58,465 nt of DNA from Minisyncoccia bacterium (GCA_049997795.1 JBEKVT010000003.1:1-58465); one strand, 5' to 3'. Counted from the stretch's first letter, positions 1,285 to 45,801 are shown. Numbers and translations: made by a program. Notes: generated by a model not told the origin, from the letters alone.

Positions 1285-2391
1285 TCAATTGCCTGTGGAC
1301 GTTGCGGTGCCGTCGCCAGAGGTCGATGTGCCGGTATCGATATTGGGCGTGGTCGTGGAGATATCCGTCGTCGTTTGGGCGGTATCCGTCGGCGAGGTGG
1401 TAGTCGCCGTCGTGCCGGTGTCCGGAGTGGTCGTGGCCGTCCCGCCGCCGGTCGAATCGGTAGAAGTGGCGGTCGAGCCGGTCTGATCGGTCGAGGTGGC
1501 TGTCGAACCAGTTTGGTTTGTCGAAGTAGCCGTAGAGCCACCTGAGTCGGTCGTCGTGGTAGTCGAGCCGCCGGTCTGGTCGGTAGAAGTCGCGGTAGAG
1601 CCGCCGGATGAAGTCGTCGTCGAAGTAGCGGCGGTGGTCGTGGCCAGATTGTTCGAGCCGGACGAGTTATTGGAATTGTTTGAACCGGTAGAGGCAGTCG
1701 AAGTGGCGGTCGAACTTGTGGTATCGTCGTTCGAGACGATGGCGACTCTGTGTTTGGAGAGCCAGTCAGCAATGGCCATCACCCCGGCGGACCATGAATC
1801 GTAAGGCCTGGTGGACGTGCCGGTATTGCCGATGTTCCCGGGGTTGGAAGTGCTCGCGCCGACGCCGACCGTGCCGAAGCCAGACTCCAGCTGCATTATG
1901 GCCATCAACAAACGGACATCCACGACGTAGCTTTGGGCGGCGGCCCAGACCATGTCCCCGGTCACGGGACTACCCGGATCAGCGGCCTGGATGTATTTAT
2001 CGACATCGGCCGCGGAGCTAATGGCGCCTATGTTGGAGAGAGTGTGGGTTATCTTGTCTATATATAAAGGGTCGGCCGCGTAGGTCGAGAGGTCGTAATG
2101 CAACAGGGGCGTCGTGTCGCCTGATCCGGAAGCGCTCGTCGAAGCGTCATTGTTCTGCGTCGAGTCTATGGCGTTCTTCATCGCCTCGGTCGTGGTGACG
2201 CCGGTAGCCACGGCGGCATTATTGACGTCATTCAACAGCCTGAGCTTGTACAAAGTATCTTGCACGCTGTTGATCTCGGTATCAAAGGCATTCACCCTAT
2301 CCAGATCGCCTGTGATATATGCCTGATCTTTCGACTGATTGAGCATATTCAGCCTGTTGGTGAGCACCTGTATAAGATAGTCTATGTTCAT
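1285..2391 (-). CDS. secreted/structural protein with an SLT-like (lytic transglycosylase/lysozyme-like) core and an S/T/G-rich tail
   Basis: 368 aa. N-terminal coiled-coil-like segment. Core VRLLMAIMQLESGFG resembles the catalytic E-S motif of the SLT/goose-lysozyme fold. C-terminal ~140 aa is S/T/G low complexity. Confidence 0.6.
   Translation of the reverse strand: MNIDYLIQVLTNRLNMLNQSKDQAYITGDLDRVNAFDTEINSVQDTLYKLRLLNDVNNAAVATGVTTTEAMKNAIDSTQNNDASTSASGSGDTTPLLHYDLSTYAADPLYIDKITHTLSNIGAISSAADVDKYIQAADPGSPVTGDMVWAAAQSYVVDVRLLMAIMQLESGFGTVGVGASTSNPGNIGNTGTSTRPYDSWSAGVMAIADWLSKHRVAIVSNDDTTSSTATSTASTGSNNSNNSSGSNNLATTTAATSTTTSSGGSTATSTDQTGGSTTTTTDSGGSTATSTNQTGSTATSTDQTGSTATSTDSTGGGTATTTPDTGTTATTTSPTDTAQTTTDISTTTPNIDTGTSTSGDGTATSTGN
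1288..1719 (-). repeat. coding low-complexity S/T-rich tandem repeats
   Basis: Peptide units GGSTATSTDQTG / GSTATSTNQTG / GSTATSTDSTG recur. The DNA shows matching imperfect ~33-36-bp periodicity. Confidence 0.7.
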
Positions 2392-2400
2392 GTCGTTTTA

Positions 2401-5400
2401 TTAATAGTAGAACAGGAGCTGTTTGAAGCATTCCAGGTTGAGATGGCGGTTCAACCAGAGATATCTCAAGCCATCCACCGTCGTGAAGATCTCCATGCGG
2501 TTCCCCACAGTCGTCGAGCCGGCCGCGTAAGGATACAGGCCCGCGCCGTGCACCCAGTTGGTTATGAGGTCGATGTAATAGACGCGCATGGTGAGGTCCT
2601 TGGTGAAGTAGAGCCTGTCGCCGCCGTCATAGGCGTACATGGAGCTTTGGCCCAAAGGCTCGAAGATCGGGGCGTAATGCATCATGGCCCACCTGTCGGT
2701 GGTCAGATCCAAGCGGTCGATGCCGGCCACGGCGGCTCCCCTCGCCGCGAAAAGATACTTACCGCGCTTGGTCACGTCGGACAGGCCGAAGGCCCATTGC
2801 AAGGTATGGCCGACGCCGTGAGTCGGAGCGGAGATGATCGAATATGAGGTGGCGTTGGCGGTCGGCGCGGAAGAAACCGCCGTACCCCACGTAATGGTCC
2901 CGGTAGCAGCAGCGGTCGCGCTGATCACATACGATTCCTGGGCAGAGCCGCCGCTCGACAGGAATTTGAGCTTCTTGCCCATCAAGGCGCTGGTGTTCCA
3001 GGCACATAAGATCAACGGAGTATTGACTGCGCCGGAATTGGCGACCGATACGGTGATGCTTGTAGAGCCGGCGCCGCCAGTGACTTGAGTGCCGACGTTG
3101 ATGCCGGCTCCAGCGGTTATATACCAGCCCGTCACGTTCGCCGGACAGGCGACAGGCAGAGTAAGGGTATTGGACTGCGCCGAGCCGGTACAGTTCGTAA
3201 CGGATGACCAGAAGGCGTTGGCGTCGATGACCGTCGTAGTCGTACCGCCCGTCGCCACGCCGCTGTAGTAAGTAGTGGTCGAGCCTTCGTTCGCGGCTCC
3301 GATGCAATCGCGCTTGGCGATCATGTATCTCGTAGTGCCCGCCACCATCGCTTGGGCGAAATTGGCAAGCGGGGTCAGAGAGTTGCCCGTGTTCGTAGTT
3401 ATCTGCATGCCTTGGCCGCTGGATTGACCTGTGGTCAGGGCCACAGCGCCATAATTGCCGTAGACCATGCAGTTGCCCCAAGGCGAGCTGAAAGTGACGG
3501 CGGCGTTGGTGGTGGCGGTGTTGACGACCGACATGACCAGGTTGGCGGTGCCGGCGCCGGAGACGACAGTCGCTCCGATGCCGATGCCTGTGCCAACCGC
3601 GTACCAGCCGTTGATGTAAGTGGGGGTCGGAGCGGACATCGTGACCAGCAACGAGCCGAGCGAGCCGGATGAAGCAGTGCCAGATGCCGCCGGCGCCCAG
3701 GCGTTGAAGGTGATGACGTTCCCCGAAGGTGAGCCGGTGTTGGGGACGGAGAGGGTGAGTGTCGTGGTGCCGGCCCCGGAGACGACCTGGCAGTAGGTGG
3801 AGCCCACGGTGCTGATGCCTGTCCCGGTCACGTACCAGCCGTTGATGTTCGAGGGGGTGTTCCCCGCGAAGGTGACGGTCGAGCCGGGATAGGCATCGCC
3901 GTTCGCCACCTGGCGGTGGTCCTTGGAGCCGTCATAGATGACAGCGACGCCCTGGGCGCCGACGCCGACGGCGTTGGCCCCGGCCGAAGCGGAGATGTTG
4001 TACGTGAATTGGTTCACGGCCGGAGAGCCGGTCGTCGTTATGGTCGTTATCTGCTGCAGGCCGTTGTAGTACTGGACGTCGCCTGAGGTCGTGGCTCCCC
4101 TTATGGAGACCCACTGGCCGACCAGGAGGTTGTGGGAGTTCACGGTCGTGACGGTGGCCACCGTGCCTGTCCTGGCGATCGTGGAGATGGCTATGGGCGG
4201 CTGCTCGTATATGACGTGGTTGGCGTCGCAGAGCATGGCGGCCATGGTGCAGGCCACGCCGGTGTCGAGGATACGGCCGTGGGAGACCTGGTCGAAGTCG
4301 CCGTTCTTGTACAGGAAGAGCTCGGCGCAGCCGGGGGCGGCCGTGGCCCAGGTGAAGTACATGTTGCTCGAGTCGCCCTGGATGACGTAGACGGAGTCGG
4401 TCGACGGCTGGACGTTCCAGTTGTTGTACAGGGTGAGGGTATCGGCAGTGTTCGAGAGGATGGACCGGAGCTGGCCCATGCCGGTGCCGGCCAGGATCCT
4501 CACGCCGAAATTGGCCCATTGGTTGGTGGTCCAGGTCTTGCCTGTCTGGGTCAGGGTGTTATAGAGGGAAGATGTCGAGGTGCCGGCTTCGAAGCCGATG
4601 ATCTCGTAGCGGGAGGTGGCATCGGGCGGGGTGGTTATCGAGGCGAAGGTCAGGGTGTTGGCCGTGTTCGAGGCTATCTTCGAGATCTGGCCACGGCCGG
4701 TGCCTGAGTATATGTATAGGTAATAGTTGGCCCATTGGTTGGCCACCCAATATTTTGTTTTGTCGATCAATACCATGTTGGTACCGGTGGCAGTTGAGAT
4801 GCTGTGAACGTAGATGGTTGATTCCTCCGTCACCCTTTCAAGACAGAGGTCGGTAGCGATATCAGGAAGCATGCCGCTTAAGACCGGTTTGGCGTACCAG
4901 ACATCAGCTAGGACGTCATAGTACTGCAAGGTAAAACCGTACGGATTGGCTTGAGTGGACAGGAGCCAGACGCCTCCCGACTGGATGACGTACCTCGATG
5001 TGTTATCGGGCTGAGTGTCCCAGGCTGTATCGACGGTCACGACCGAAGATTCTATCTGGTACATAGTGTCAGTCGAGGGATTCGTCGACCAGACGGTATT
5101 GCACCAAGGATCCTCCGCGTGCTTGTTGGCGTCGCCTATGGTGAGGACTGTGTCGGTGCTGTACATGATCTTGTGGACCTGCAAGAGACCGGTGCCGAAT
5201 GTCGTCCTCAGGGCATAGCCGACCCATTTGTTGAGACCTAACGTCGTTCCCACATATCCGGTAGTCCAAGTCTTTGTCGTGTCAGCCAAGGTCGTTGCGC
5301 TACCGCCTGTGGCGACACCGTAATCGGCGACCACCGGATCGGCGACAGAGGTAATGTACCGTTCCTGTCCGGCGCCCTTGCCGCTTATGATCGATATCTT

Positions 5401-5878: not shown

Positions 5879-6076
5879 TTAGACGCGGGTCACATTCTTG
5901 GCGTTCGGGCCCTTCTGGCTTTCGACGACTTCGAAGCTCACCTTGTCGCCGACCTTGAGCTCGTCAAAGGCGACGCCGGAGAGATCGTTGGAGTGGAAGA
6001 ACAGGTCCTTCGGCTCGCCTTCGCGAGCGATGAACCCGAATCCCTTGTCCGTCAGAGTCTTGATCGTTCCCGTCAT
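5879..6076 (-). CDS. cspA: cold-shock protein (CspA family)
   Basis: 65 aa with RNP1/RNP2 motifs KGFGFI and DLFFH. Confidence 0.95.
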   Translation of the reverse strand: MTGTIKTLTDKGFGFIAREGEPKDLFFHSNDLSGVAFDELKVGDKVSFEVVESQKGPNAKNVTRV

Positions 6077-6212
6077 GTTGTTGATTATTGGCTATTTAAC
6101 TTCAAAGAAATTCGACGCGGCTTTCTTGAACTGTGGATAGTAGCACAGTTGGGCGGGAATAGATAGGGCTGCCTGTGCCTTTGGGACCGGTTTCTGATAT
6201 CATGGGCCGGTC

Positions 6213-6425
6213 ATGGATGAAGACATCTCCATCGTATCCGGGGACGACTTGCCGGACCAGAAAGGGCTGATACACAAGCTGTGCGAGATAGACAAGATAT
6301 GCTACGGGGACATCGACCTCTTGAAAAGGAACTTCGATCCGGAGGTCATCTCGCGCGACGTCCATGGGCATCCTGTCATCCGCATCAGGGCCGACAGCGG
6401 CAAGCTGCCGTTATTCAAGGCCTGA
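6213..6425 (+). CDS. hypothetical small protein
   Basis: 70-aa ORF with protein-like composition. No clear SD and no recognised family. It competes with the antisense ORF 6102-6371. Confidence 0.3.
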   Translation: MDEDISIVSGDDLPDQKGLIHKLCEIDKICYGDIDLLKRNFDPEVISRDVHGHPVIRIRADSGKLPLFKA

Positions 6426-6428
6426 GGC

Positions 6429-6456
6429 TTGACATAAAAATACATAGGAGTATCAT
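6429..6456 (+). promoter_or_regulatory. sigma70-type promoter (TTGACA-N16-TATCAT)
   Basis: TTGACA at 6429-6434 and TATCAT at 6451-6456, directly upstream of a tract with no convincing ORF. Confidence 0.5.
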
Positions 6457-6462
6457 CCTCTA

Positions 6463-6916
6463 TCGAACGCCGCTCCTTTCGAAGAAAGAAACTCGATTCC
6501 CGGCAGTAACGGCCAGGGAACAGGCCAAATCTCTAAGTCCCCGGAAATGGGATAACTTAAGAGGAAACTACGCCGGTCACGGCGCAAGTCCGATTGAGCA
6601 ACGATGTTCACTTGGAGAGGTTGAAGGAACCCGCCACCCGGTCGAAACGCGACAGCGTGGCCGGCAGTATGCTACCTCGGCAGAGGGGCTAGAACGGGTG
6701 TCCTGAGTAGCCGAGCTATTAGAGATCGCGAACGAGATAGCTCAAGGCGAATCCGTCTGGCAATGGCTAGCCATCCGGGCTAGATGAAAATAAGCACCAA
6801 ACGCAAGCGTCGTTGCGAGACGCAGCTCTTCCGTCGAATGCGCGCCTATCAGAAGAGACCAAGCGTGTACGCTCTTGCCAGATAAGCCTAAATCGATCCG
6901 AACGAAGCGTTCCCCC
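6463..6916 (+). ncRNA. structured non-coding RNA, possibly a divergent RNase P RNA
   Basis: Bounded by a promoter and a strong terminator; the ORFs here look non-protein-like. Several short strings resemble bacterial type A RNase P RNA: GGCAGUAACGGCC (P8-like), CCCCGGAAAUGGG (P9-like), CCGCCACCCGG, GGCUAGAUGAA. The 5' GAACGC (6465-6470) can pair with the 3' GCGUUC (6907-6912). A canonical GAGGAAAGUCC / ACAGAA..CGGCUUA P4 was not found. Confidence 0.4.
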
Positions 6917-6955
6917 GGCCCTGCTTTCCTCACGGAAAGCAGGGCCCTATTTTTT
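6917..6955 (+). terminator. intrinsic terminator
   Basis: 13-bp stem GGCCCTGCTTTCC / GGAAAGCAGGGCC, loop TCAC, then CTATTTTTT. Confidence 0.85.
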
Positions 6956-7032
6956 CCACCGCTACTGACTAACGACCACCGTTAGCAGACATTGGAATCA
7001 AGTAAATAAGGCTTTTTCGCTTTTTCTCGATT

Positions 7033-7383
7033 CTATCGTCTAAGCATTGTGATCCAATGCAAAATAATCCCTATCACCAAATAACAGACTAGGTAAGGAA
7101 CTACGGTACAGACTGCATTAAAAAAATTGCTGACGAATATATCCGGACCCCACATCAATCCGATTTTAAGCAATGCCCCGAAATATATAGTGTTGTATAA
7201 CACACAGCCCCACATTCCCCATCGCTCCGTCATATCTTTCAGAGTGGCGAAAACGACCGTGAGAAAAATGACTACTGTTACGGCAATCCGATACTCAGTT
7301 AAAAATGACGTTAAAACAGACCAGTACAGTTGAATCAGTTGCTTTGTCCCGTCGTCAATGGCTTCCATAAATGTATTTGGCAT
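7033..7383 (-). CDS. hypothetical membrane protein (cassette 1)
   Basis: 116 aa with about three hydrophobic helices. No recognised family. Confidence 0.5.
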   Translation of the reverse strand: MPNTFMEAIDDGTKQLIQLYWSVLTSFLTEYRIAVTVVIFLTVVFATLKDMTERWGMWGCVLYNTIYFGALLKIGLMWGPDIFVSNFFNAVCTVVPYLVCYLVIGIILHWITMLRR

Positions 7384-7496
7384 TTCCTTGGAAACTATGT
7401 AGCAATAGATAAGACAATGATAGCTCTACCAGTGACCCAAATGATAACAAAAGATTCTTTTGAACTCTCTTCATGCTCTTATTTTACCACGATTCT

Positions 7497-7530
7497 GTGA
7501 CCCATATTAGTGGAGATTGGAAACGGATCA
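7497..7530 (-). repeat. cassette repeat R1 (diverged copy)
   Basis: GTGACCCATATTAGTGGAGATTGGAAACGGATCA aligns with R2 and R3. The -35 position next to it is degenerate (ATCGTG). Confidence 0.5.
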
Positions 7531-7560
7531 TTGACAGCATCAAGTATATTTATATTTTCA

Positions 7561-7599
7561 TATAACAAGAACCCGCCAGAGGTCCTACAACATGGCGGG
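7561..7599 (-). terminator. putative terminator after cassette 2 gene
   Basis: Stem CCCGCCA/TGGCGGG followed by a T-rich tract on the minus strand. Confidence 0.45.
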
Positions 7600-7622
7600 G
7601 AGATATTTCTATTTACAGAGAC

Positions 7623-8096
7623 TCAGTAGTATCCTGGAGGCGGTACGACCCAGTCGCCATGGAGATGCTTCTCAGCCTGCTCAACAGTCCAGGCACGATG
7701 CGCATAGCCAAGATTACTGAATGAAACGAATGATGCGCCGAAATAATCATGTGAAGTAAAGCCCGGACCCCTTAAGGGCGGGAGCTCGAATTCACGATAT
7801 TCCACTGCGCAAACGAGACCATCAATGATCCTCTTCAGATCAGCGAGAGTCCCTGTTCGGAAGTTCTGCTTGGGAGGATTCGCATCCGAAAACAAGAACA
7901 CTGGATATACCCTCGGACGAACCGGGCTCTGCGGCCAGCCTTTTTTCTTGAATACCTTGCGCATGGATCGGATCTCATCATCATAATCTTCCGCGCGCAC
8001 TGCTCCCGTCACACCGTTATGAGAGCAGACGTAGATCAACGGCCTCTGGGGATACAGATCCCAGAATCTCCTAAGCAACGATTTCAATGTGCTCAT
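7623..8096 (-). CDS. hypothetical protein (cassette 2)
   Basis: 157-aa ORF with protein-like composition. No recognised family. Confidence 0.55.
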   Translation of the reverse strand: MSTLKSLLRRFWDLYPQRPLIYVCSHNGVTGAVRAEDYDDEIRSMRKVFKKKGWPQSPVRPRVYPVFLFSDANPPKQNFRTGTLADLKRIIDGLVCAVEYREFELPPLRGPGFTSHDYFGASFVSFSNLGYAHRAWTVEQAEKHLHGDWVVPPPGYY

Positions 8097-8183
8097 GACT
8101 TACTCCTTAGACTGCCTCATTTATGTTCCCTTCCAACGCCATGTTGGGGAGTGGGTTAAAACAAGGGCTTACTGTCCAAACAG

Positions 8184-8212
8184 ACATTATCATATTTAAT
8201 ACATAATGTCAA
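8184..8212 (-). promoter_or_regulatory. sigma70-type promoter (TTGACA-N17-TAATGT)
   Basis: The reverse complement of 8207-8212 is TTGACA. The hexamer TAATGT lies 17 nt downstream. Confidence 0.55.
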
Positions 8213-8215
8213 TCT

Positions 8216-8244
8216 GTGACCCTCGTTAGTGAGAATTGGAATCA
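8216..8244 (-). repeat. cassette repeat R2
   Basis: GTGACCCTCGTTAGTGAGAATTGGAATCA. Matches R3 at 28 of 29 positions and lies 3 nt from the TTGACA box. Confidence 0.8.
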
Positions 8245-8290
8245 GTTGATATTACATCTGACAAATTTCAATGGCCAAATCTGATATATA

Positions 8291-8322
8291 GAAAAACCGC
8301 CCGAATCGCAAGACCGGGCGGT
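8291..8322 (-). terminator. intrinsic terminator after cassette 3 gene
   Basis: Stem ACCGCCCG/CGGGCGGT followed by TTTTTC on the minus strand. Confidence 0.6.
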
Positions 8323-8341
8323 CTTTTCGAATCGGGCGGAT

Positions 8342-8833
8342 CTAACCGAGCGCTCTTTGCATTAAGGCCTTGAGCTCTTGAGCTGCGGGTTGGCGCATTA
8401 TCTCCTCAAGACCATCGAGAGCTGCAGGCGTCAGGTATCCTGAGCCCCCTCCATTGATATCCATCCAAGAGCTTACAGTGTGGACGCCGTCGATCCCCAT
8501 CGCAGCAAGCTTTTCAGCAAGACAGCGCAGGTACCGGTGATAGGCGTAAAACTGTTCGGCCTTGAGCATGAATGACGGGCGAATCTCAATCTTATAATTC
8601 CGATCGGTCCATGCGGATTTGTCCCGCATTTCCACTTCGCCCATCCAACGTATGCTCGGAGCGATTTCTCCGCCGACATAGCGCGAAATCCACGGATAAT
8701 CCTTATCCACCTGCTTGACGAACAACCTAAGGGACTCAGGGTCAAGATGCGCATCGTCCATGACGCTGAAGCTTATGAATCCGCTCACGTTGAACTTCTG
8801 TTCGTTCCAGTGAGTCTGTTGGTTGGCCTCCAT
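8342..8833 (-). CDS. hypothetical protein (cassette 3)
   Basis: The ORF track extends to 8959. I place the start at the ATG at 8833 (MEANQQTHW) because AGGAGG lies 7 nt upstream and the extension covers a leader hairpin. Confidence 0.55.
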   Translation of the reverse strand: MEANQQTHWNEQKFNVSGFISFSVMDDAHLDPESLRLFVKQVDKDYPWISRYVGGEIAPSIRWMGEVEMRDKSAWTDRNYKIEIRPSFMLKAEQFYAYHRYLRCLAEKLAAMGIDGVHTVSSWMDINGGGSGYLTPAALDGLEEIMRQPAAQELKALMQRALG

Positions 8834-8958
8834 TGGAGAACCTCCTATATGTGAGGGGCGGAATTGCCACTCAGCAGTTATTTCTGCTTTCAAGAGGCAC
8901 TTGGCTGTATCCTGAAAGCAGAAATAACTGAATCCCAATATAAAAGAACTACCATACA

Positions 8959-8988
8959 ATTATAGCATATTTGATGCAATATTGTCAA
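8959..8988 (-). promoter_or_regulatory. sigma70-type promoter (TTGACA-N18-TATAAT)
   Basis: The reverse complement reads TTGACA atattgcatcaaatatgc TATAAT. Confidence 0.65.
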
Positions 8989-8991
8989 ATA

Positions 8992-9020
8992 GTGACCCTC
9001 GTTAGTGAAAATTGGAATCA
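8992..9020 (-). repeat. cassette repeat R3
   Basis: GTGACCCTCGTTAGTGAAAATTGGAATCA, 3 nt from the TTGACA box. Confidence 0.8.
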
Positions 9021-9071
9021 AATTATTAATGAAATAAAACTGTTTTCCTATTTTACTTAGGCATTCATGTT

Positions 9072-9108
9072 GAAAATAAATAACGGGCACCTCCTGCGAA
9101 GCGCCCGT
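9072..9108 (-). terminator. intrinsic terminator after cassette 4 gene
   Basis: Stem ACGGGC/GCCCGT followed by TATTTATTTT on the minus strand. Confidence 0.5.
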
Positions 9109-9138
9109 GTGAATTTGTTTGAGTGTCTGTTTACGGTC

Positions 9139-9798
9139 CTAGTTTGATGCAGTTCGACGCCCGACTTGTGACTTCATGAACGCAAAGCCATATGAGGGAT
9201 TCCAGATCCCCGTATCGACGTCAACGTCGACATAACCAGTCAACCCGAAGTTATTGAAGCCTGAGTCCATATCCACGCAGAGAAGACGGGGGTCGTTTGT
9301 AAGATGGTCTTCAGGAGGATGAATATATGGCTTGTGCATGACAACAATCCGCCAAAATCCCATCTCAACAATTTCCCGTGGCGTTAGCGCGTCCAATATC
9401 AGACAAGCCACCTCTTGATGGGGGGACATCAGACCACGTCGAGTCGCTTCAGCGATGATATTATTCGTGGTACGGTTTTTGTCCGTGAAAAGGCCCGGTG
9501 TGAGAACAGCGACCTCAGTCACGATTCCGAGCGTCGGCTTGAAATCTGGCGAACGAAGAACTGATTCAGCTTCATCATCCACTTTCAACTCCTTTTTCTT
9601 CAATCGTTCGACCCACTGCGAACCGGTTGTACCACCGGACGTAACCGAGAAGTAAATGACTCCTGCTCGATTCGTCCACGGAAAACCTAGTTCCGTTATT
9701 TTGAGCTTACCTCGGAGCAGTTTCCGCACCCCGTCCATGCCGCCAAGCCTGTTGACGACCGCCTCCATTGTCCCCAGATCTAATCGTGGGTATTTCAT
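9139..9798 (-). CDS. hypothetical protein (cassette 4)
   Basis: 219-aa ORF. An AAAGGA SD-like element lies upstream of the ATG. No recognised family. Confidence 0.6.
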   Translation of the reverse strand: MKYPRLDLGTMEAVVNRLGGMDGVRKLLRGKLKITELGFPWTNRAGVIYFSVTSGGTTGSQWVERLKKKELKVDDEAESVLRSPDFKPTLGIVTEVAVLTPGLFTDKNRTTNNIIAEATRRGLMSPHQEVACLILDALTPREIVEMGFWRIVVMHKPYIHPPEDHLTNDPRLLCVDMDSGFNNFGLTGYVDVDVDTGIWNPSYGFAFMKSQVGRRTASN

Positions 9799-9949
9799 AC
9801 ACTATCCTTTCATCAACTGTTAGTTGTGATCTATGCACCTCTGAGAGAGATGTATGCTAGGACAGTCAGTAGTCATAGCCAGAGAACACCGAAGTTTCAG
9901 TATCTTCTGGCTATGGCTACTGAATTGGTAAATTTAAAGAACTACGAAC

Positions 9950-9979
9950 ATAGTAGCATATGTTATGCGTATTTGTCAA
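9950..9979 (-). promoter_or_regulatory. sigma70-type promoter (TTGACA-N18-TACTAT) abutting the tRNA 3' end
   Basis: The reverse complement of 9974-9979 is TTGACA, 3 nt after the end of the GGGGTCAC string that terminates tRNA-Glu(CUC). Confidence 0.55.
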
Positions 9980-9983
9980 CTAG

Positions 9984-10058
9984 TGACCCCATCGGGATTT
10001 GAACCCGAGTTCCAGGATTGAGAATCCTGTGTCCTGGACCAGACTAGACGATAGGGCC
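9984..10058 (-). tRNA. tRNA-Glu (anticodon CUC)
   Basis: Acceptor GGCCCTA/TGGGGTC (two G-U pairs), anticodon stem CAGGA/TCCTG with loop TT-CTC-AA, T-arm TCGGG-TTCAAAT-CCCGA. The 5' base overlaps the murF stop codon. Confidence 0.85.
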
Positions 10059-27231: not shown

Positions 27232-27474
27232 CTATTTCCTTATGACCATAAGCTTCTCCGCGCGCGTCATGCGCTTCAGGGCCGCTTCCCTCTCGCGTGC
27301 CCGGGCGAGCGTCCGATGCGCCTCGCTCCAGACGAGAGAGACCGGCCGGCGGATCTTCGTATAATGAGCGCCCGACTTCGCATGGTTGTGCTCCCGCAGG
27401 CGCTTCTTGAGGTCGTTCGTACAGCCGACGTAGAGCGTGCCATCGGCGCATCGGAGGATGTAGGTGTGGTGCAT
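27232..27474 (-). CDS. GIY-YIG nuclease family protein
   Basis: Start at MHHTYILRC (27474). Carries the GIY-YIG hallmark [24 protein letters not shown]. About 80 aa. Confidence 0.85.
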
Positions 27475-27475
27475 A

Positions 27476-27793
27476 TCACCCAAGCTTGTAGACATCCATC
27501 GCCACTTCTTCGTACGGATGAACTTTCTTTATAGCTGCGATCACGCTGCTTACCACAGCATCATCGCGCGTCACTTCAATCCGCTCTTCCTCGACTTCTT
27601 CCAATTTCCCCGCTATGCCGATATACGGCCGCGCCCCTTCCTCCGGCTTGAATCGTCCGACGCCTCGCACCGAGAAACTGCAGAGTGAATACTTCCCCAG
27701 CTTTCCCCCGCCCGCCGCGCCGATCGCTTGGCGCACCACTTCGGCGTAAGTTAGAGGGACATAGACAACGATTTTTGAGCAGGGGGTGGGCAT
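27476..27793 (-). CDS. small PII-like domain protein (YqfO/NIF3-insert-like)
   Basis: 105 aa. Pattern KIVVYVP...A..V..A...AGAG..G.Y..C.F...G.G.F.P......P.IG....E.VEE.RIE resembles the standalone YqfO insert domain family. Confidence 0.55.
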
Positions 27794-27815
27794 GATCTAT
27801 GTTAATGAATTGTTA

Positions 27816-29504
27816 TTACCATTTATCTTTTTCCCCAAATATCCTCAACCTATCTTTAGGATGCTTCTGATTTAGCTTTCTTAAAATAGAGTTTGCGAGA
27901 GATCGAAAACCCTTCCAGCCGCCACCCTGTTGAGAAACGTAGGATCTACTGAACTTCATTCCTTTAAGAGGTTTCAAGTACTGTTCAAAATCAAGATCTG
28001 CTTTAGGATATTTTTCCATTATCCTTGATAAAACCAATAGTAAGGCATTTATACCAGCTGGTTTTAAAAGAGAATATTGTTTTATATTTTTCCATGGGTC
28101 TCTTCTTGGGCTTGTCTTTGTTGTATTTTTCTCAACCCCACCAAAATATCTACGTAAAAGATCCGACTGTTTTTTAAGAGAGCCCTGATTTTTTAAATTT
28201 TTCAACTGAGCCCTATCATTAAATGGAGCAAATTTAAATAGCACACCTTGATAATCATGTGCTTTCTTGTTAAATCCCAATAAGCCCTCCAAAAGACCAT
28301 ACCTAGCAAAGCTTGAAAGAGATATCGGTCTTCTCCCATCTAGTTCAGATATCTTTACCCTATCTTTGAACGATCCCTTCTTATTTAACTCTGATACAAG
28401 TAAACTTGGCCATGTGAGTTCATTAGTAAGGTCTGGCACTGATCTTGCTAAGTCGCACAAGAGGGTGGGGTCAATTTTCTTTTGGTTGTAGTTTATGCTA
28501 ACAAATGTTCGGTTCTGCATAACATCATCGAGTTTCCTAAAAGCCACAACAGGCAATTTAAATTCTTCTGCCGGATCATCAGGATCAGTGTCTTCAAACT
28601 TTGTACCTAGGAATCCAAATATCCGATGCTGTCCATCAATAATCCATGCGGAAGAATATATCTTTGGAAATTTCAAGATACCATTTGTATAGGATATCTT
28701 ACCCTGAATATCTTTATCATCATCAAATGCTAGAATGATCGCATTGGGCAAGATAGCTCCCTTCGACTTTATAAAATCAGAAACCTTTTTGATTCTATCT
28801 TTATTGAGAATACGCTGATAAGCCTCAGGTTTGCCCGAGGCTCTTCGAGAAACATAACCAATTTTTAATAAAACCGCAGGATAAACACCTAGTAGATACA
28901 TTTCCCAGTCACCCTGTCTTATCTGTACAGCCCCTTCTTTACATATCTGGCGCTCCTCAAAACTTATATTGAACTCTTTGTATAGCTCGTACTTAATCCA
29001 TTTTCCAAGCGTTCTACCAACCTTATTATAATAAATGACAGCATTATTATTCCAAGCGATAAAACCACGTCTTTGAAATGTCTTCGAAAGTGTGACGAAT
29101 TTCTCAACATCAAAATATTTCCCAAATACATAACATACTTTCACCTTATCTAAATTTTCAAGATCAGTTATCTTTATTTTATTATCCGCCGATGAAATCA
29201 GTTTTGACCTACCGCCTTGAATTTTTTGGATGTCTGCTTCCCAGGAACTAATTTCCTTATTTATTGAATCAAAATTTTTTCCTCCCTTACATTCAAATAT
29301 GAAAATAAACTTTTTACCTCTGTTTTTGCCATACATCACTACATCAGCAGAACGTTCCACTGTAAGATTTCCATCTTCCTCTTTATCCCCAGTAAAATTA
29401 AGAATAACCTCCTTGTCAGAAGAAATTTCACAGGTTGAGGCAATATCCTGAATCTTTCTTTTCAATCGTTTGTGCTCAACTGTCTCTTCGAGATTTGGGC
29501 TCAT
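27816..29504 (-). CDS. DGQHR-domain (DndB/ParB-like) protein with an N-terminal PD-(D/E)xK-like module
   Basis: 562 aa. Literal DGQHR motif (WIIDGQHRIFG), preceded by YQRILNKDRIKKVSDFI and followed by FVSINYNQKKIDP. The N-terminal ~190 aa carry SADVV...FIFIFECKG, a D...ExK nuclease-like signature. Confidence 0.8.
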   Translation of the reverse strand: MSPNLEETVEHKRLKRKIQDIASTCEISSDKEVILNFTGDKEEDGNLTVERSADVVMYGKNRGKKFIFIFECKGGKNFDSINKEISSWEADIQKIQGGRSKLISSADNKIKITDLENLDKVKVCYVFGKYFDVEKFVTLSKTFQRRGFIAWNNNAVIYYNKVGRTLGKWIKYELYKEFNISFEERQICKEGAVQIRQGDWEMYLLGVYPAVLLKIGYVSRRASGKPEAYQRILNKDRIKKVSDFIKSKGAILPNAIILAFDDDKDIQGKISYTNGILKFPKIYSSAWIIDGQHRIFGFLGTKFEDTDPDDPAEEFKLPVVAFRKLDDVMQNRTFVSINYNQKKIDPTLLCDLARSVPDLTNELTWPSLLVSELNKKGSFKDRVKISELDGRRPISLSSFARYGLLEGLLGFNKKAHDYQGVLFKFAPFNDRAQLKNLKNQGSLKKQSDLLRRYFGGVEKNTTKTSPRRDPWKNIKQYSLLKPAGINALLLVLSRIMEKYPKADLDFEQYLKPLKGMKFSRSYVSQQGGGWKGFRSLANSILRKLNQKHPKDRLRIFGEKDKW

Positions 29505-30415
29505 GGTAAATTCTTTATTCTCCTTAGACCAAAATTTAGGAACTTACTGTTCAATTCAATTCCAACAGAGTTCCTGTTTAACTTACCTGCGGCTACAGAG
29601 GTCGTAAATGTACCAGCAAAAGGATCTAATATAGTGTTGCCTTTATTACTACTGACTTTTATAAAGAGTTCTAGCAAGGCCAATGGTAGTTGGCAAGGAT
29701 GGTCTTTCCTTCTCAATTCAGCCAGTGAAGACACTGGTTTAAACTTACTATTTAAGTTTCTGAGACGGTCTTTTGAATTGTTTTTTAACAAATCGACGTC
29801 AATAACATCAACTAATCCTTTTTGTAATTCTATTAGGTCTAAAAACCGAAATAGATCATATGATGTTCTCCCTTTATGTCCCTGTGCGATTCTTTTTCTT
29901 ATGACAGGTGCTGTTGGATTTTTATAATGTTGAATCAGCTTCTCTCTATTAAAAGAATAGTTCTTTGTTTTTGTAAAAAACAATATGCTTCTTTGACTGC
30001 GTGTGTAATTTTTACTTGAATGGCCAATATTGGTAGGATAATGCCAGGTAATCCAACCGCGATAATTCAAGTTCAATTCATCCTCAAGAAAAGGAAGGAG
30101 GCGTGCACTGATTTCTGGATAACTAATTATATAAAAACTTCCTTTGTCGTTGAGTATTCTAGGAATATCCTTTAATCTACTTTTTAGCCACTTATAATAT
30201 TCTGACTGAGATCGCGAGTCATTAAACTTATCTCCATAATCAAGACCTTTATTGTATGGGGGGTCAGTGATAATAAGATCAATACTCCCTACAGGTAGAG
30301 ATTTTATAACTTCTTCACAATCTCCTTTAACTAGAAGATGTTTAGTGCGACCTTTTTTAATAAGATCTCTTTTAAAGCCGCCCCTTTTTACTGATTCAAT
30401 AATCTTCTGCATCAT
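29501..30415 (-). CDS. beta-class N4/N6 DNA methyltransferase
   Basis: 304 aa. Catalytic DPPY (IITDPPYNKG) precedes the SAM-binding DPFAGTFTT. This permuted order is typical of the N6_N4_Mtase family. Confidence 0.9.
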   Translation of the reverse strand: MMQKIIESVKRGGFKRDLIKKGRTKHLLVKGDCEEVIKSLPVGSIDLIITDPPYNKGLDYGDKFNDSRSQSEYYKWLKSRLKDIPRILNDKGSFYIISYPEISARLLPFLEDELNLNYRGWITWHYPTNIGHSSKNYTRSQRSILFFTKTKNYSFNREKLIQHYKNPTAPVIRKRIAQGHKGRTSYDLFRFLDLIELQKGLVDVIDVDLLKNNSKDRLRNLNSKFKPVSSLAELRRKDHPCQLPLALLELFIKVSSNKGNTILDPFAGTFTTSVAAGKLNRNSVGIELNSKFLNFGLRRIKNLP

Positions 30416-33400
30416 TATATTTTAACAATTTCCATAGTAATCTTTTCTGTTTCAACTAACACCGCAATTATTTTCTGATAGTGTTTAATCTCTTCACTAG
30501 TTAGCCTTTTCCCCTGCCGATCTTTCAACCACTTCTGTGCCGGCTGGTAGCCGCCTATATAGAAATTCCAGGCAGTCTCTGGCACACCGCCGAAATATTG
30601 CATTTTATTGATAAAGACTTTGTTGTCCTGATGCTTTGGATACTTCGCCTCGACAGTATCACTTCCGGATTCCGGGAATGTCGTTATGAGCGTATTCAGC
30701 TTCGGCGATTCCATGAGGTGAAGCTCGCGCAATTCCCTGCCCAAGGCCACAAGTAACTTGAATGATTCTGTATCTCTCGGATACGGCACGCGAGGATAAT
30801 CGATCTTAAGGAATTCCTTGTATTTCTCTCGATAAGTCGGAGAATATAAAACTGCGTAAATATAATCAAAAATGTCTTCAGGAAAAACCTCACCAACAAT
30901 TTTTTCTATTTGCTCAACAATTCCTTTTTGAAGATTTGGTAATTTCGAATTGTCATCGGCGTACAGGTAAAGTGGAAATACATATGTTTGATCACTTACG
31001 GCATGAATATCAGAAATATCCTTCGTGACAAGACTCCTATCAAAATCTTGAGTCGGTGGAATCATTCGGCTCGTAAGTAAAGACAGGTTGTCCTTACCAA
31101 CGATATTTTTATTTGTCTTTTCCCTTGGGTAAGCGATAAATCCTTTGGAATGACCCGTGTAGACTGTAAAACGCGTATCAAATGGTCTGTACTGAATTTT
31201 TTCAACCCTTGAACCATCCTGAAGATCTTTTTTTGCCCATTCAACTTTCCAATCTCGTCCATCTTCCGGTAGATGATATTTTTTACGAATTTCTTCAACT
31301 GGGAGATTTTGCATATCAACTGCAACAGTCTCAATATCTTCTTTGTCAAATCTTATGGTTAAATCATCACGCTTTGTCTGAATGCCAGAATTGTATTCAT
31401 TGAAAACCTCAATTACAGAGAACCCTTTCTTGTATTCACTCCCCGTACCAAAATCCTTCGGCACAAAGAAGTAATACGGCTCGGCATATTCGAGCTTGTT
31501 CCACTTCATCGTTGCCAGATCGCTTTTATTGAGCACTTCAAATTTGCTCTCGCGTTTTCCATATAATTCGGCGTGATACACAGTGCCCAGCTCTTTCTTT
31601 TTTCCTTCCTTTCGTACAAAGATTGAAATGGCTACGCCTTGCTGGATGTCAAAGACATTCTCATCTTTGCCGCCATTGGGCGCTTTCTCCTTCTTTTTGG
31701 AATTGCCGTGTAAATCAAGTATATAAATACTGTCGAAAGTTTCCAGTAAATGTTTCCTCATCTGCCGATGCGTAATGCCGTCAATGTACGAATTGTTGGT
31801 GATCATAGCCACGACACCACTCCCGTTCTTCTCGATAAAATGTTCCGAGAGGCGAAGGAATTTAATGTAATCATCGTCGAGGTTGATCTTGCGCTCGCCC
31901 AAATATTTTTTATAGACCTTGATAAGCTCTTGTATCCATTCACCTTTATTGGACGAGCTCACGCTATACGGCGGATTTCCCATAACCACCATGATTGGTG
32001 TTTCGTTCTTGATCTTGGCCGCGGCCTTGCTTTCATCGGTAATACTCTGCCCGAAACCGAATCCGAAGAGCGATTCTTCGACCTTAACTCCCTCCTCCAG
32101 CGAATTCGTCAGGTAAAACCCAAGGCGATGGTTGAAATCGGTGATGCCGCTGTCATGTAGAGTCATGGCAATCTTGAGGTGCGCAATAGTATATGGTGCC
32201 ATCATCAGTTCAAATCCATGCAAGCGCGGCAAAAGGTCGTTCTCGACATACGATTTCCATCTCCCTTCCTGATCTTTGAAACGCGCGAGGATATTTTTCA
32301 CCACTTCATTCAAGAAGGTGCCCGTCCCCATCGCCGGATCTAGAATCTGGACTTTATGAATAGATTCTTTACCGTTCTTACCTTGTTTAGTCGTCTTGAC
32401 TTCGATCTCTGTCGTATTGGAAAGCCCGCCGGCCAAGCCGAAGTCTTTTTCAAGGAGGTAATCGGTGGCACGGACGATGAATCGCACCACAGGTAAGGGT
32501 GTATAGAATGCTCCAAGCGCCTTGCGCTTCTCGGCATCGTACTCTTTCAGAAAATCCTCGTAGAAATGTATGACTGGATCAACCGACTCTTTGTCATCGG
32601 AGCCATGCAGACCTTTTTGCGTCACATAGGCGTTCATGAGGGCGTGGACATCAGCGTTCTTGAACACCTCGCACAGTTCATTGACAATGATGGCCAGGCG
32701 TATATCGAAATCCGCGCCAACGATATGATCAAAGAAACTGCGCAGGAACGGATTGGAATGCGGCACCAGGTCGCGTGCCTCGGCACGGGTGAAATTACCG
32801 GTAGTCTTATCTTCATATCGCGCTGCGAAGAGACCGTAGACCAGCGTCTGAGCATACATGTCAGCGAATTGATCTTCGGACAAGTCGTGAATCAAGATCT
32901 TTTTGAACGATTCATACATACGCCGAAGTTCCTCATTTCGTCCATGCGGATTAGACACATACTCGCTCACTTTAGAGCGAATACGCCGTGCCTTATCTCC
33001 CATGATTTTCGCCAGTTTAGTGCTTGAGGTAATTGCTTCAGTCTGTGTTAGAAAGGTCTTGATCGCATCCTCCAGATCAGCATATGCTTTTTCATTCGGC
33101 ACAATTTCATTGTTAACTAATTTCGCAACAATGATTGGCTCACCATATTTATTGCCATGCCGATAGAAGCGGAACTCCAGGTAGTTAGTAAGAATGAGCG
33201 AACCGTATTCGAGATACCGTTCCATCTGCTCACTCTTTTCAGTATCATCAAGATTCTCCTTCACATCCTTAGCTTCAGCATAGCCAGCGCTTAATTCTTT
33301 AGAACGCATCAAGGCGAAGTCTGGTGCGCCGTGCTCGGAATGCTTGGGATCGTTTATAGCCTGTAATCTCGGCACGACGGACTCAAAAAGTGCTTTCAGG

Positions 33401-33489
33401 GCAGGACGATAGGCGTGTTCAGTCGCCTGACCGCTCTTGAATTCAGCAATTATTGCGGAAATATAAACTTCAACCGGATTTTCTTTCAT
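30415..33489 (-). CDS. single-chain Type IIG/IIL-like restriction-modification enzyme (nuclease + gamma-class N6-adenine MTase + specificity domain)
   Basis: Start set at MKENPVEVY (33489). N-terminal GAPDFAL-x13-EAKD (PD..ExK). MTase motifs FYTP, DPAMGTGTF and NPPY. C-terminal YPRVPYP ... GGYQPAQKWLKDR as in type ISP / MmeI-like C-terminal domains. No helicase motifs. Confidence 0.8.
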   Translation of the reverse strand: MKENPVEVYISAIIAEFKSGQATEHAYRPALKALFESVVPRLQAINDPKHSEHGAPDFALMRSKELSAGYAEAKDVKENLDDTEKSEQMERYLEYGSLILTNYLEFRFYRHGNKYGEPIIVAKLVNNEIVPNEKAYADLEDAIKTFLTQTEAITSSTKLAKIMGDKARRIRSKVSEYVSNPHGRNEELRRMYESFKKILIHDLSEDQFADMYAQTLVYGLFAARYEDKTTGNFTRAEARDLVPHSNPFLRSFFDHIVGADFDIRLAIIVNELCEVFKNADVHALMNAYVTQKGLHGSDDKESVDPVIHFYEDFLKEYDAEKRKALGAFYTPLPVVRFIVRATDYLLEKDFGLAGGLSNTTEIEVKTTKQGKNGKESIHKVQILDPAMGTGTFLNEVVKNILARFKDQEGRWKSYVENDLLPRLHGFELMMAPYTIAHLKIAMTLHDSGITDFNHRLGFYLTNSLEEGVKVEESLFGFGFGQSITDESKAAAKIKNETPIMVVMGNPPYSVSSSNKGEWIQELIKVYKKYLGERKINLDDDYIKFLRLSEHFIEKNGSGVVAMITNNSYIDGITHRQMRKHLLETFDSIYILDLHGNSKKKEKAPNGGKDENVFDIQQGVAISIFVRKEGKKKELGTVYHAELYGKRESKFEVLNKSDLATMKWNKLEYAEPYYFFVPKDFGTGSEYKKGFSVIEVFNEYNSGIQTKRDDLTIRFDKEDIETVAVDMQNLPVEEIRKKYHLPEDGRDWKVEWAKKDLQDGSRVEKIQYRPFDTRFTVYTGHSKGFIAYPREKTNKNIVGKDNLSLLTSRMIPPTQDFDRSLVTKDISDIHAVSDQTYVFPLYLYADDNSKLPNLQKGIVEQIEKIVGEVFPEDIFDYIYAVLYSPTYREKYKEFLKIDYPRVPYPRDTESFKLLVALGRELRELHLMESPKLNTLITTFPESGSDTVEAKYPKHQDNKVFINKMQYFGGVPETAWNFYIGGYQPAQKWLKDRQGKRLTSEEIKHYQKIIAVLVETEKITMEIVKI

Positions 33490-33535
33490 TCGTACAATTC
33501 TAACACTTTTGAGAAAATTCGATACTTTAAGGAAA

Positions 33536-33931
33536 CTACTTCCCAAACTCTTCATCCTCGACATCCTTCTCGGCATCGGCCTTGGTCTTGTGGACCCGGC
33601 CGGCGATGTGATTGGCGGGGGCATAGACGGTGTAGAGCTTCATGGGAACGGCGCCGGTATTGACGATATTGTGCTCGGAGCCGGCGGGCACGAGAAGAGC
33701 GGAGCCGTCCTCGACGGGGTATTCCTTGCCGTCGATCACCGCCTTGCCGAGGCCGGCCTCGAAGCGGAAGAATTGGTCGACGTGGTGGACTTCGGCGCCG
33801 ATCTCTTCGCCGGGCAGGAGCGACATCAGGACGAGCTGGCTATGGGCCGCCGTGTAGAGGACCCGGCGGAAATCCGTGTTCTCCAAGGTGAGCTTCTCGA
33901 TGTCGGCGCTGTATGGTTTTAGGTCATTCAT
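33536..33931 (-). CDS. cupin domain protein
   Basis: 131 aa. Cupin motifs G.E...H.H....E (GEEIGAEVHHVDQFFRFEAG) and the second motif VPAGSEHNIVN. GC-rich like the backbone. Confidence 0.8.
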   Translation of the reverse strand: MNDLKPYSADIEKLTLENTDFRRVLYTAAHSQLVLMSLLPGEEIGAEVHHVDQFFRFEAGLGKAVIDGKEYPVEDGSALLVPAGSEHNIVNTGAVPMKLYTVYAPANHIAGRVHKTKADAEKDVEDEEFGK

Positions 33932-33938
33932 GATGCCT

Positions 33939-34469
33939 CTAGTGTAGCAGATCCTTGGTCAGTCTCAAGGTCAGCTTCGCTTTCAATGGCTTGCCCTGCG
34001 ATCTTGATTCGATGAATGTGAGGGCTTCATGCAGACCGTCGAGGCTTTCCTGGGATTTGGCAAGCGTGCGCCGGTTGAGGGCATAACTTTTGACCAGATA
34101 GTCGTGCAGGATCCTCGTCGCCCAGATGCGGAATTGAGTGGCTTTCTTGGAATTAATGCGATAACCGACAGCAATTATGACATCGAGATTATGAAATCTA
34201 GTGAGGTATTGCTTGCCGTCTTTGGCAGTTAGTAAGAAATCCTTACTAACTGAATTCTCATTGAGCTCTCTTGTCTTAAAGATATTTTTGAGATGCATAG
34301 TGACGTTAGGCCTTGATACTTGGAAAAGTCGCGCAATCTGCTCTTGCGTCGCCCACATCGTATCCTTCTCGACATCGGCGCGCAGTTCGACATTGCCGCG
34401 CTTGTCGGTGTAGAGAACGATCTTGTTATTGGGATCCTTGATAGTCTGGCTCGTCTTGATTTTAATCAT
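33939..34469 (-). CDS. RhuM-family (virulence-associated, Fic/DOC-neighbour type) protein, short form
   Basis: 176 aa. Pattern LYTDKRGNVELRADVEKDTMWATQEQIARLFQVSRPNVTMHLKNIF...FHNLDVIIAVGYRINSKKATQFRIWAT is typical of the RhuM N-terminal region. Full-length family members are usually about twice as long. Confidence 0.7.
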   Translation of the reverse strand: MIKIKTSQTIKDPNNKIVLYTDKRGNVELRADVEKDTMWATQEQIARLFQVSRPNVTMHLKNIFKTRELNENSVSKDFLLTAKDGKQYLTRFHNLDVIIAVGYRINSKKATQFRIWATRILHDYLVKSYALNRRTLAKSQESLDGLHEALTFIESRSQGKPLKAKLTLRLTKDLLH

Positions 34470-34610
34470 ATAGAATAATGACCAGTTATTAATCCCCGGA
34501 TCAAAAATCTGCCCACCTGTGTGAGCGACTTCCGATCATGGGGCATCACGACCGGCTGGCCGTGCATATAATGGGTTGATTATACTCCTATCCCCATTCC
34601 AGCGATACTA

Positions 34611-39907: not shown

Positions 39908-39946
39908 GGCCTTAACTATAGCATCAAGGCCGTTATTCAGAAAATG

Positions 39947-40018
39947 AGCCGGGGAGAGGAATTGAACCTCCAACCCATCGCTTACAAAGCGATCGCTCTA
40001 CCATTGAGCTACCCCGGC
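39947..40018 (-). tRNA. tRNA-Thr (anticodon UGU)
   Basis: Acceptor GCCGGGG/CCCCGGC, D-arm GCTC-AATGGTA-GAGC, anticodon stem ATCGC/GCGAT with loop TT-TGT-AA, T-arm GGAGG-TTCAATT-CCTCT. Confidence 0.88.
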
Positions 40019-45632: not shown

Positions 45633-45704
45633 GGCCACGTAGAAAAGTGGTAATTCGGCGGTCTGCAAAACCGCTATACGCGGGTTCGATTCCCGCCGTG
45701 GCCT
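45633..45704 (+). tRNA. tRNA-Cys (anticodon GCA)
   Basis: Acceptor GGCCACG/CGTGGCC, anticodon stem GCGGT/ACCGC with loop CT-GCA-AA, T-arm GCGGG-TTCGATT-CCCGC. Confidence 0.88.
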
Positions 45705-45801
45705 CAATCGGGGTCCCGATCGCGGGCTGTTTTCGCGGTTATTCACAGTGCACCGAAAAATGGCCGGACGGGAGTATGTGATATAATAGCCCGGCAATCA
45801 G

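Follow-up and report, generated by a model that had tools for sequence, protein, structure and literature searches.

The ParB-like protein DpdB, from 7-deazaguanine DNA modification systems, has ATPase activity (PMC10164549, PMC12839542), and both ATP and GTP are bound by a DndB-like protein (bioRxiv 10.1101/2025.10.10.680097). The DGQ(H/Q)R sequence corresponds to the motif that binds phosphate in the ParB/sulfiredoxin fold (PMC4619093), and a ParB-like COG1479 protein has been described in a Campylobacter Type I restriction locus (PMC3632139). Here, we analyse a block of three minus-strand genes, which we call A, B and C, in a 58,465-nt stretch of DNA from a Minisyncoccia bacterium (GCA_049997795.1 JBEKVT010000003.1:1-58465; "the window" refers to this whole stretch). 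Gene C encodes a 562-amino-acid (aa) protein in which a DGQHR domain follows a domain with a predicted restriction-endonuclease fold. Genes B and C form a conserved two-gene unit that consists of a methyltransferase and this fusion protein; gene A, judged by its sequence, is an ordinary, self-sufficient restriction-modification enzyme of a known kind. The account we favour, and consider likely, is that the block at positions 27794-33535 comprises two separate restriction-modification systems, A and B-C, placed end to end on one transcript. B-C follows restriction-modification logic with an endonuclease architecture that is not described in the literature we searched; our search for DGQHR, DndB-like and ParB-like proteins in combination with methyltransferases returned no description of the pair.

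Results

Genes B and C form a conserved unit that does not include gene A

Our comparison of C relatives began from 34 loci with a full-length C protein (L001-L010, L080-L090 and L160-L172), which provided 25 distinct loci, other than the window, with usable flanking sequence. All 25 have a PF01555-type methyltransferase gene within ~3 kb of the C relative, in most cases as the neighbouring gene. Overlap of the two genes, or a gap of only 1-2 nt, is common; they are found with the methyltransferase gene first, with the C gene first, or in convergent orientation, and they occur in both bacteria and archaea. Gene A does not share this association: a tblastn search with A found no match in 159 related loci, and none of the open reading frames (ORFs) of the 34 loci with full-length C, L160-L172 included, matches A. 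Moreover, B-C-type pairs are found alone among housekeeping genes, with upstream spacers of their own of 200-290 nt, in three loci (L163, L165 and L166).

The methyltransferase partner of C differs between clades. In the clade that includes the window (the window, L160, L167, L170, L082 and L084; hereafter the window clade), the partner has a DPPY motif and is 60-74% identical to B, whereas most other partners have (T)SPPY, the usual N4-cytosine signature of this methyltransferase family, and are only 28-35% identical to B, even though the C proteins that accompany them are 52-67% identical. This exchange of methyltransferases argues for a restriction-modification pair rather than for a fixed three-part machine. 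One locus is atypical: in L086, the gene for the full-length C relative is closely preceded by one for a shorter DGQHR-type protein of 399 aa (2360-3559), and the methyltransferase gene is ~3 kb downstream.

The three genes fill a block of low guanine-plus-cytosine (G+C) content. A preliminary description of the window had reported an abrupt drop in G+C at about position 27794, three minus-strand genes with overlapping stops and starts, and the domain content of each gene; these observations hold up, with the domain assignments borne out by searches against Pfam, PADLOC and NCBIfam profiles. The G+C content of the 5.7-kb block is 0.399, as compared to 0.585 elsewhere in the window, where 1-kb intervals have a mean of 0.584 (standard deviation 0.045, minimum 0.439). 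Within the block, the first four such intervals range from 0.356 to 0.384. The fall at ~27800 is sharp; the climb back towards 33535 is gradual, with values of 0.43-0.49 between ~31700 and ~33500. The ORFs are at 30415-33624, 29501-30415 and 27816-29504, all on the minus strand. Inspection of the sequence shows that the stop codon of A and the start codon of B overlap by 1 nt in TAATG (30413-30417, minus strand), and that the stop codon of B and the start codon of C overlap in ATGA (29501-29504, minus strand). The preliminary description had taken these overlaps to mean a fixed stoichiometry; we read them as evidence for co-expression, not for a complex of fixed composition. Base composition within the block is uneven, with G+C contents of 0.44 for A, 0.343 for B and 0.361 for C; even within A, the value is 0.475 in the 5' third and 0.39 in the recognition domain. 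The difference between A (0.44) and B-C (0.34-0.36) supports the idea that these are separate systems, and the block may be a composite of parts that differ in origin or age.

Gene B encodes a beta-class DNA methyltransferase

Gene B (29501-30415, minus strand) encodes a 304-aa beta-class N4/N6 DNA methyltransferase that matches Pfam N6_N4_Mtase (PF01555; E 2e-46) and PADLOC MTase_II. Its motif IV, DPPY, is at residues 51-54, N-terminal to the S-adenosylmethionine-binding motif, as expected for the (D/S)PPY motif of this class; the sequence DPFAGTFTT is found near the C-terminus. The closest NCBIfam model is that of the adenine-specific methyltransferase PRK11524, with a score under the cut-off for that model, and the relatives of solved structure are MboIIA and RsrI. 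The DPPY motif and the adenine methyltransferases among its relatives suggest that the target of B is probably N6-adenine.

Gene C encodes a putative nuclease fused to a DGQHR domain

Gene C (27816-29504, minus strand) encodes the predicted restriction component of the pair. About 140 full-length homologues, with 34-67% identity to C, are found in bacteria and archaea. The AlphaFold model of C has a mean predicted local distance difference test (pLDDT) score of 91.4 for the whole protein and 92.4 for residues 1-185. Fold searches with the full-length model gave only weak E-values, of 0.02 or worse, because the query has multiple domains; hence, we searched with the N-terminal domain alone. This domain (residues 1-185; 28950-29504, minus strand) is predicted to adopt a restriction-endonuclease (PD-(D/E)xK) fold, as the preliminary description had suspected: the Foldseek matches include HamA (E 4.5e-4), FokI (E 1.1e-3) and VC1899 (E 1.6e-3), as well as R2 endonuclease, MspJI, MUS81, Can2/Card1, EcoT38I and MunI, and all of the credible matches are PD-(D/E)xK nucleases. 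The putative active site is formed by D54 and (E/Q)71-C72-K73. In an alignment of 110 C sequences, D54 is invariant (110/110), C72 (107/110) and K73 (103/110) are nearly so, and E32 is present in 100; position 71 is E in 75 sequences and Q in 33, such that 108 of the 110 have one or the other. Based on the fold and the conservation of D54 and K73, C looks like an active nuclease. The N-terminal domain is rare, with 76 cluster representatives among 1.84 billion proteins. Nearly all of the longer matches are ~540-580 aa in length; the shorter matches mostly resemble fragments.

Residues 192-496 of C (28017-28931, minus strand) form a DGQHR domain of the ParB/DndB/DpdB-like kind, with a match to TIGR03187 (E 6e-38) that is above the cut-off. 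The motifs D290-G-Q-H-R294 and Y229-Q-R231, together with F334 and N338, are invariant in 109-110 of the 110 aligned sequences. The best named matches for residues 188-519 are to DpdB models, but the scores for equivalog models are under their cut-offs, at 80 bits for DpdB (cut-off 300) and 70 bits for DGQHR_dnd_1 (cut-off 450). PADLOC assigns to C only a weak DpdB match, and does not model it as a nuclease. Sequence searches against solved structures, whether with the single sequence or with a 25-sequence profile, returned only noise and no characterised restriction-enzyme relative. On viral contigs, we found no full-length relative of C, but only distant relatives of the DGQHR domain that lack the nuclease domain. 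From what is known of DpdB, of the DndB-like protein and of the ParB/sulfiredoxin motif, we infer that the DGQHR module of C binds a nucleotide. The invariant ParB-type motif makes a requirement for a nucleoside triphosphate possible.

Gene A is predicted to be a self-sufficient Type IIG/IIL enzyme

Gene A (30415-33489, minus strand) is predicted to encode a single-chain Type IIG/IIL restriction-modification enzyme of 1024 aa. The start codon is most likely the ATG at 33489, because the closest homologue, P0122, is 1024 aa long and aligns over 100% of this version of the protein. Automatic gene calls extend A to 1046 or 1069 aa (33490-33624), and so overrun the neighbouring cupin gene. A matches the PADLOC model REase_MTase_IIG (PDLC03610) with an E-value of 8e-272, and has Pfam matches to N6_Mtase, Eco57I, MmeI_Mtase and Type_ISP_C. 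The best match of solved structure is 7lo5 (E 3e-46, residues 308-993), deposited only as "adenine-specific DNA-methyltransferase", which we take to be the Type IIL enzyme DrdV; LlaBIII and LlaGI follow. The sequence features expected of a Type IIG/IIL enzyme are present in one chain. The translation has a putative N-terminal nuclease motif, P56-D57...E72-A73-K74 (33268-33324, minus strand), that lines up with the PD...ESK of 7lo5, in a stretch of alignment that is not significant on its own. This is followed by a gamma-class N6-adenine methyltransferase domain at residues 305-594 (31708-32577, minus strand) that includes GNPPYS, and hence the NPPY motif, with Pfam matches to N6_Mtase at residues 305-583, Eco57I at 483-594 and MmeI_Mtase at 369-583. 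Lastly, residues 694-1017 (30439-31410, minus strand) form a C-terminal target-recognition domain that matches nearly all of the Type_ISP_C profile (E 6e-83, positions 1-339 of 342). No Methylase_S gene is found among the flanking ORFs we scanned; the neighbours of A are B and the cupin gene.

The family of A is very large, with at least 7950 matches at E-values below 1e-20, among which several are named as Patescibacteria. Homologues with 83%, 76% and 71% identity to A (in L176, L177 and L178) are followed by unrelated genes without Pfam matches, and none of these three closest homologues examined has a second methyltransferase gene or a DGQHR or C-like gene beside it. The Type IIG match, the intact nuclease and NPPY motifs, the size of the family, and the lack of B-C beside the closest homologues all argue that A is self-sufficient. 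The genes that follow the homologues differ from one another and are uncharacterised, with overlapping or near-zero spacing (L176:3114-4692, L177:5255-6256 and L178:8103-9726); those in L176 encode a 192-aa membrane-like protein and a 335-aa protein. Thus, this Type IIG family seems to gather variable downstream cargo. We found no kinship among the small proteins encoded upstream of B-C elsewhere and those encoded downstream of A homologues. We also looked for a variant of the locus that lacks B-C; every contig encoding an identical A protein proved to be the same locus, and an apparent difference in L174 reflects gene calling only.

In the window clade, B-C mostly lies inside or directly after other restriction operons

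Within the window clade, B-C is never found alone, and the restriction system beside it varies between loci. In L160-162, the gene order is HsdR-HsdM-[B-C]-HsdS, and a different HsdR-HsdM-[B-C]-HsdS operon in L167-169 is followed by a gene for an Mrr_N protein. In both L160 and L167, the pair sits between hsdM and hsdS with spacers of 1-5 nt. In L170/171, the Type I-derived upstream gene encodes a 772-aa fusion of a nuclease, HsdM and half of an HsdS, followed by a 57-aa ORF, B-C, and the same Mrr_N protein as in L167. In L084, B-C follows a Type III-like pair, consisting of a superfamily 2 helicase/nuclease protein and a Mod-type methyltransferase. In L082, the pair is part of a defence island in which GmrSD lies upstream and a Type I system is found at a distance of 1.6 kb, and in the window it follows the DrdV-like A. 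Outside this clade, two archaeal loci (L010 and L087) have the methyltransferase and C genes followed by hsdM, hsdS and hsdR. The 0-5-nt spacers in most of the window-clade loci suggest that B-C in this clade probably has no promoter of its own. We found no DNA shared by the six loci at the junctions upstream of B or downstream of C; since the upstream partner also differs in kind, we consider the nesting to reflect operon-level hitch-hiking or stacking, rather than a defined multi-protein machine.

The Mrr_N-domain proteins that follow B-C in L167 (7784-8518) and L170 (6798-7538) are 244-246 aa long and match each other with an E-value of 3e-133, and they have a weak PADLOC match to Type IV methyl-directed enzymes. 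The upstream restriction genes differ between the two loci.

Genes flanking the block

The cupin gene (33536-33931) borders the block on the gene A side; at the opposite end, a G+C-rich gene encoding 105 aa starts 22 nt past the stop codon of C. A GIY-YIG gene (27232-27495; domain match E 2.5e-16) and a RhuM-family gene (33939-34469) lie in the flanks, as had been noted in the preliminary description, although the RhuM gene is a fragment: it encodes 176 aa and matches only positions 1-83 of the 252-position profile. The fragment is located in a local dip in G+C content (0.46 at 34000-34500). The other flanking genes are housekeeping genes, encoding PheT, a DEAD-box helicase, a major facilitator superfamily transporter and inositol monophosphatase. 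We found no direct or inverted repeats flanking the block. Scans for promoters and terminators gave match counts equal to the shuffled expectation, and so are uninformative with respect to internal promoters.

A second stretch of low G+C content (0.47-0.49, with surroundings of 0.58-0.61) is found at 6000-10000 of the window. It contains six ORFs of 112-219 aa without a Pfam match, ends at tRNA-Glu(ctc) (9983-10058), and may be another acquired island. The window has six tRNA genes (positions include 1-1000, 39946-40018 and 45633-45705), and its proteins are also found on a 657-kb contig; together with the tight gene packing, these observations suggest a small genome.

Discussion

A conserved link to a methyltransferase gene, and a nuclease fold with conserved catalytic residues in C, are what would be expected of a Type II pair, and B-C has both. 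We propose that the block provides two stacked barriers of differing specificity. A would work like DrdV and MmeI, methylating its own site and cutting unmodified foreign DNA. B would methylate the host DNA, probably at N6-adenine, and C would use its N-terminal PD-(D/E)xK domain to cut DNA that lacks the B mark, in a Type II-like manner. For the DGQHR domain and the helical C-terminus of C, the most likely role is the binding of DNA and a nucleoside triphosphate, which could gate or position the nuclease. In the window clade, B-C would ride on the operon of an upstream restriction system, which in this locus is A. A bolder version of this proposal, which we offer tentatively and regard as doubtful, is that B-C represents a new class of restriction-modification system, in which a ParB-type nucleotide switch, the DGQHR domain, does the work for which Type I, Type III and Type ISP enzymes use a helicase-like motor. 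Binding of a nucleoside triphosphate would load or slide C on DNA, and so license the nuclease on unmethylated DNA; one clade of such systems would have become a promoterless cassette that nests in restriction operons to provide layered or backup immunity.

Several observations weigh against the idea that A and B-C are independent of each other, or that C is a restriction enzyme. In five of the six window-clade loci, B directly follows another restriction gene on the same strand, and in the sixth, a Type I system is 1.6 kb away. This nesting may be more than the chance clustering of genes in defence islands, and it leaves room for a functional tie between B-C and the upstream system. All samples with the A-B-C trio have it in identical form, with no natural variant that parts A from B-C. 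With respect to C, the TM-scores (structural similarity) of the fold matches to the N-terminal domain are modest, at 0.40-0.48 of the query, and the Q at position 71 in one third of the family could weaken or alter catalysis. Lastly, nuclease activity and restriction are predicted, from structural models and motifs, for every member of the C family.

The preliminary description had proposed a single composite system. In that view, C could provide the Type IIG enzyme with an additional nuclease or a sensor, with B methylating a second strand or a second site. The stop/start overlaps across all three genes, the foreign composition of the whole block, the invariance of the trio across samples, and the constant presence of another restriction system beside window-clade B-C (in five of six cases within the same operon) are all consistent with such an arrangement. 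We nonetheless consider it unlikely: A and B-C are found adjacent only here, as judged from the 159 related loci and the 34 loci with full-length C, in which A is missing, and from the three closest A homologues examined, which lack B-C. Furthermore, the upstream partner varies between a Type I HsdM, a Type I-derived fusion of modification and specificity subunits, a Type III-like Mod and the DrdV-like A, which leaves no conserved interface; B-C-type pairs are autonomous elsewhere; and the G+C contents of A and B-C are 8-10 points apart. What stands of the composite proposal is the nesting of B-C in other restriction operons of its clade; the data give no support to a link with gene A specifically. 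The same nesting would be accounted for if C were a guard, silent while the upstream enzyme works and released upon phage anti-restriction, as is PrrC in the EcoprrI Type I operon. The fact that B-C separates hsdM from hsdS in two distinct Type I operons, its position directly after other restriction genes, and the occurrence within Type I loci of ParB-like COG1479/DGQHR proteins proposed to be cell-death modules (PMC3632139) fit such a role. Nevertheless, a guard nuclease would have no need of the methyltransferase with which C is always paired, the type of partner system varies, and most of the wider C family is not nested, such that we think a guard function improbable.

Two other possibilities concern C itself. 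One is that the DGQHR protein is an NTPase that helps or regulates the methyltransferase, in the way that DpdB relates to DpdA, and DndB to the dnd genes, with a nuclease-fold domain that only binds DNA. DpdB models are the best family matches for residues 188-519, DpdB is an ATPase required for DNA modification (PMC10164549), fusions of ParB-fold domains to N6_N4 methyltransferases are common in phages (bioRxiv 10.1101/2025.10.10.680097), and 33 of the 110 C sequences have Q at position 71. We judge this to be a poor candidate because the invariance of D54, the near-invariance of K73 and the presence of E32 in 100 of 110 sequences argue for a live active site, the DpdB and DndB equivalog scores fall far under their cut-offs, and viral contigs yielded no full-length relative of C. 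The other would make C a modification-dependent (Type IV) enzyme like GmrSD, BrxU and SspE, with B as an unrelated neighbour. The architecture, a ParB-like DGQ(H/Q)R domain combined with a nuclease, is analogous (PMC4619093), but the near-universal linkage of C to a methyltransferase gene, often with overlap of the two genes, the lack of a Pfam match to GmrSD_N or DUF1524 in C, and the differences in domain order and nuclease type make this very improbable.

The B-C pair is uncatalogued, and PADLOC 2.0 would list B as a methyltransferase gene that lacks a nuclease partner. If active as an endonuclease, C represents a new restriction-enzyme architecture, and would provide a tractable case for understanding the role of ParB-fold DGQHR domains in defence proteins, such as DndB, and DpdB beyond its ATPase activity. 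The repeated nesting of one methylase-nuclease pair in Type I and other operons is a clean example of operon-level defence stacking.

Among described systems, gene A most resembles DrdV/MmeI-type Type IIL enzymes, with which it shares its length class (1024 aa, as compared to 1029 aa) and domain order; it is highly divergent from them, such that only the part spanning the methyltransferase and target-recognition domains aligns significantly. Some sources name A homologues as Type ISP, an assignment we rejected for A: it has no helicase, ResIII or SNF2 match, and hence no counterpart of the helicase-like motor that LlaGI and LlaBIII have between nuclease and methyltransferase; it is 1024 aa long, as compared to 1406-1578 aa; and it aligns with these enzymes only over the methyltransferase and target-recognition domains. 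Consistent with the preliminary description, the locus does not have a Dnd, BREX or DISARM layout. The PglX and DrmMI matches of the A methylase are weak and stay below threshold, and there is no PglZ, BrxC or DrmA/B in the block or scanned flanks; nor is there any dndCDE in that region.

B-C resembles a classical Type II pair in being a tightly linked beta-class methyltransferase and D...(E/Q)xK nuclease-fold protein, with partners exchanged between clades. C differs in having a ParB-like DGQHR module of ~370 residues, and hence a possible nucleotide dependence; we know of no characterised Type II enzyme with such a module. DpdB (7-deazaguanine) and DndB (phosphorothioation) belong to the same domain family as C (TIGR03187/PF14072), but do not have the N-terminal nuclease domain, which is nearly confined to the C family. 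We rejected an assignment of C as the DndB or DpdB of a Dnd or Dpd system, given the scores under the equivalog cut-offs and the lack of dpdA/dpdC or dndCDE genes adjoining the three genes. The Type IV enzymes GmrSD, BrxU and SspE combine a DUF262 ParB-like NTPase with a DUF1524 HNH-type nuclease, whereas C has the reverse domain order and a PD-(D/E)xK nuclease fold; with neither GmrSD_N nor DUF1524 matched, membership of this group was likewise rejected. Moreover, GmrSD, BrxU and SspE are solitary enzymes that target modified DNA or sense phosphorothioate; C, by contrast, always has a methyltransferase partner.

The placement of B-C in L160 and L167 is similar to that of other genes embedded in Type I operons, such as PrrC of EcoprrI and the Campylobacter rlo genes, which lie between hsdM/hsdR and hsdS. 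PrrC is an RNA nuclease without a methylase. B-C differs from these embedded genes in that it is itself a methylase-nuclease pair, and in that it also follows systems other than Type I, as in the window and L084.

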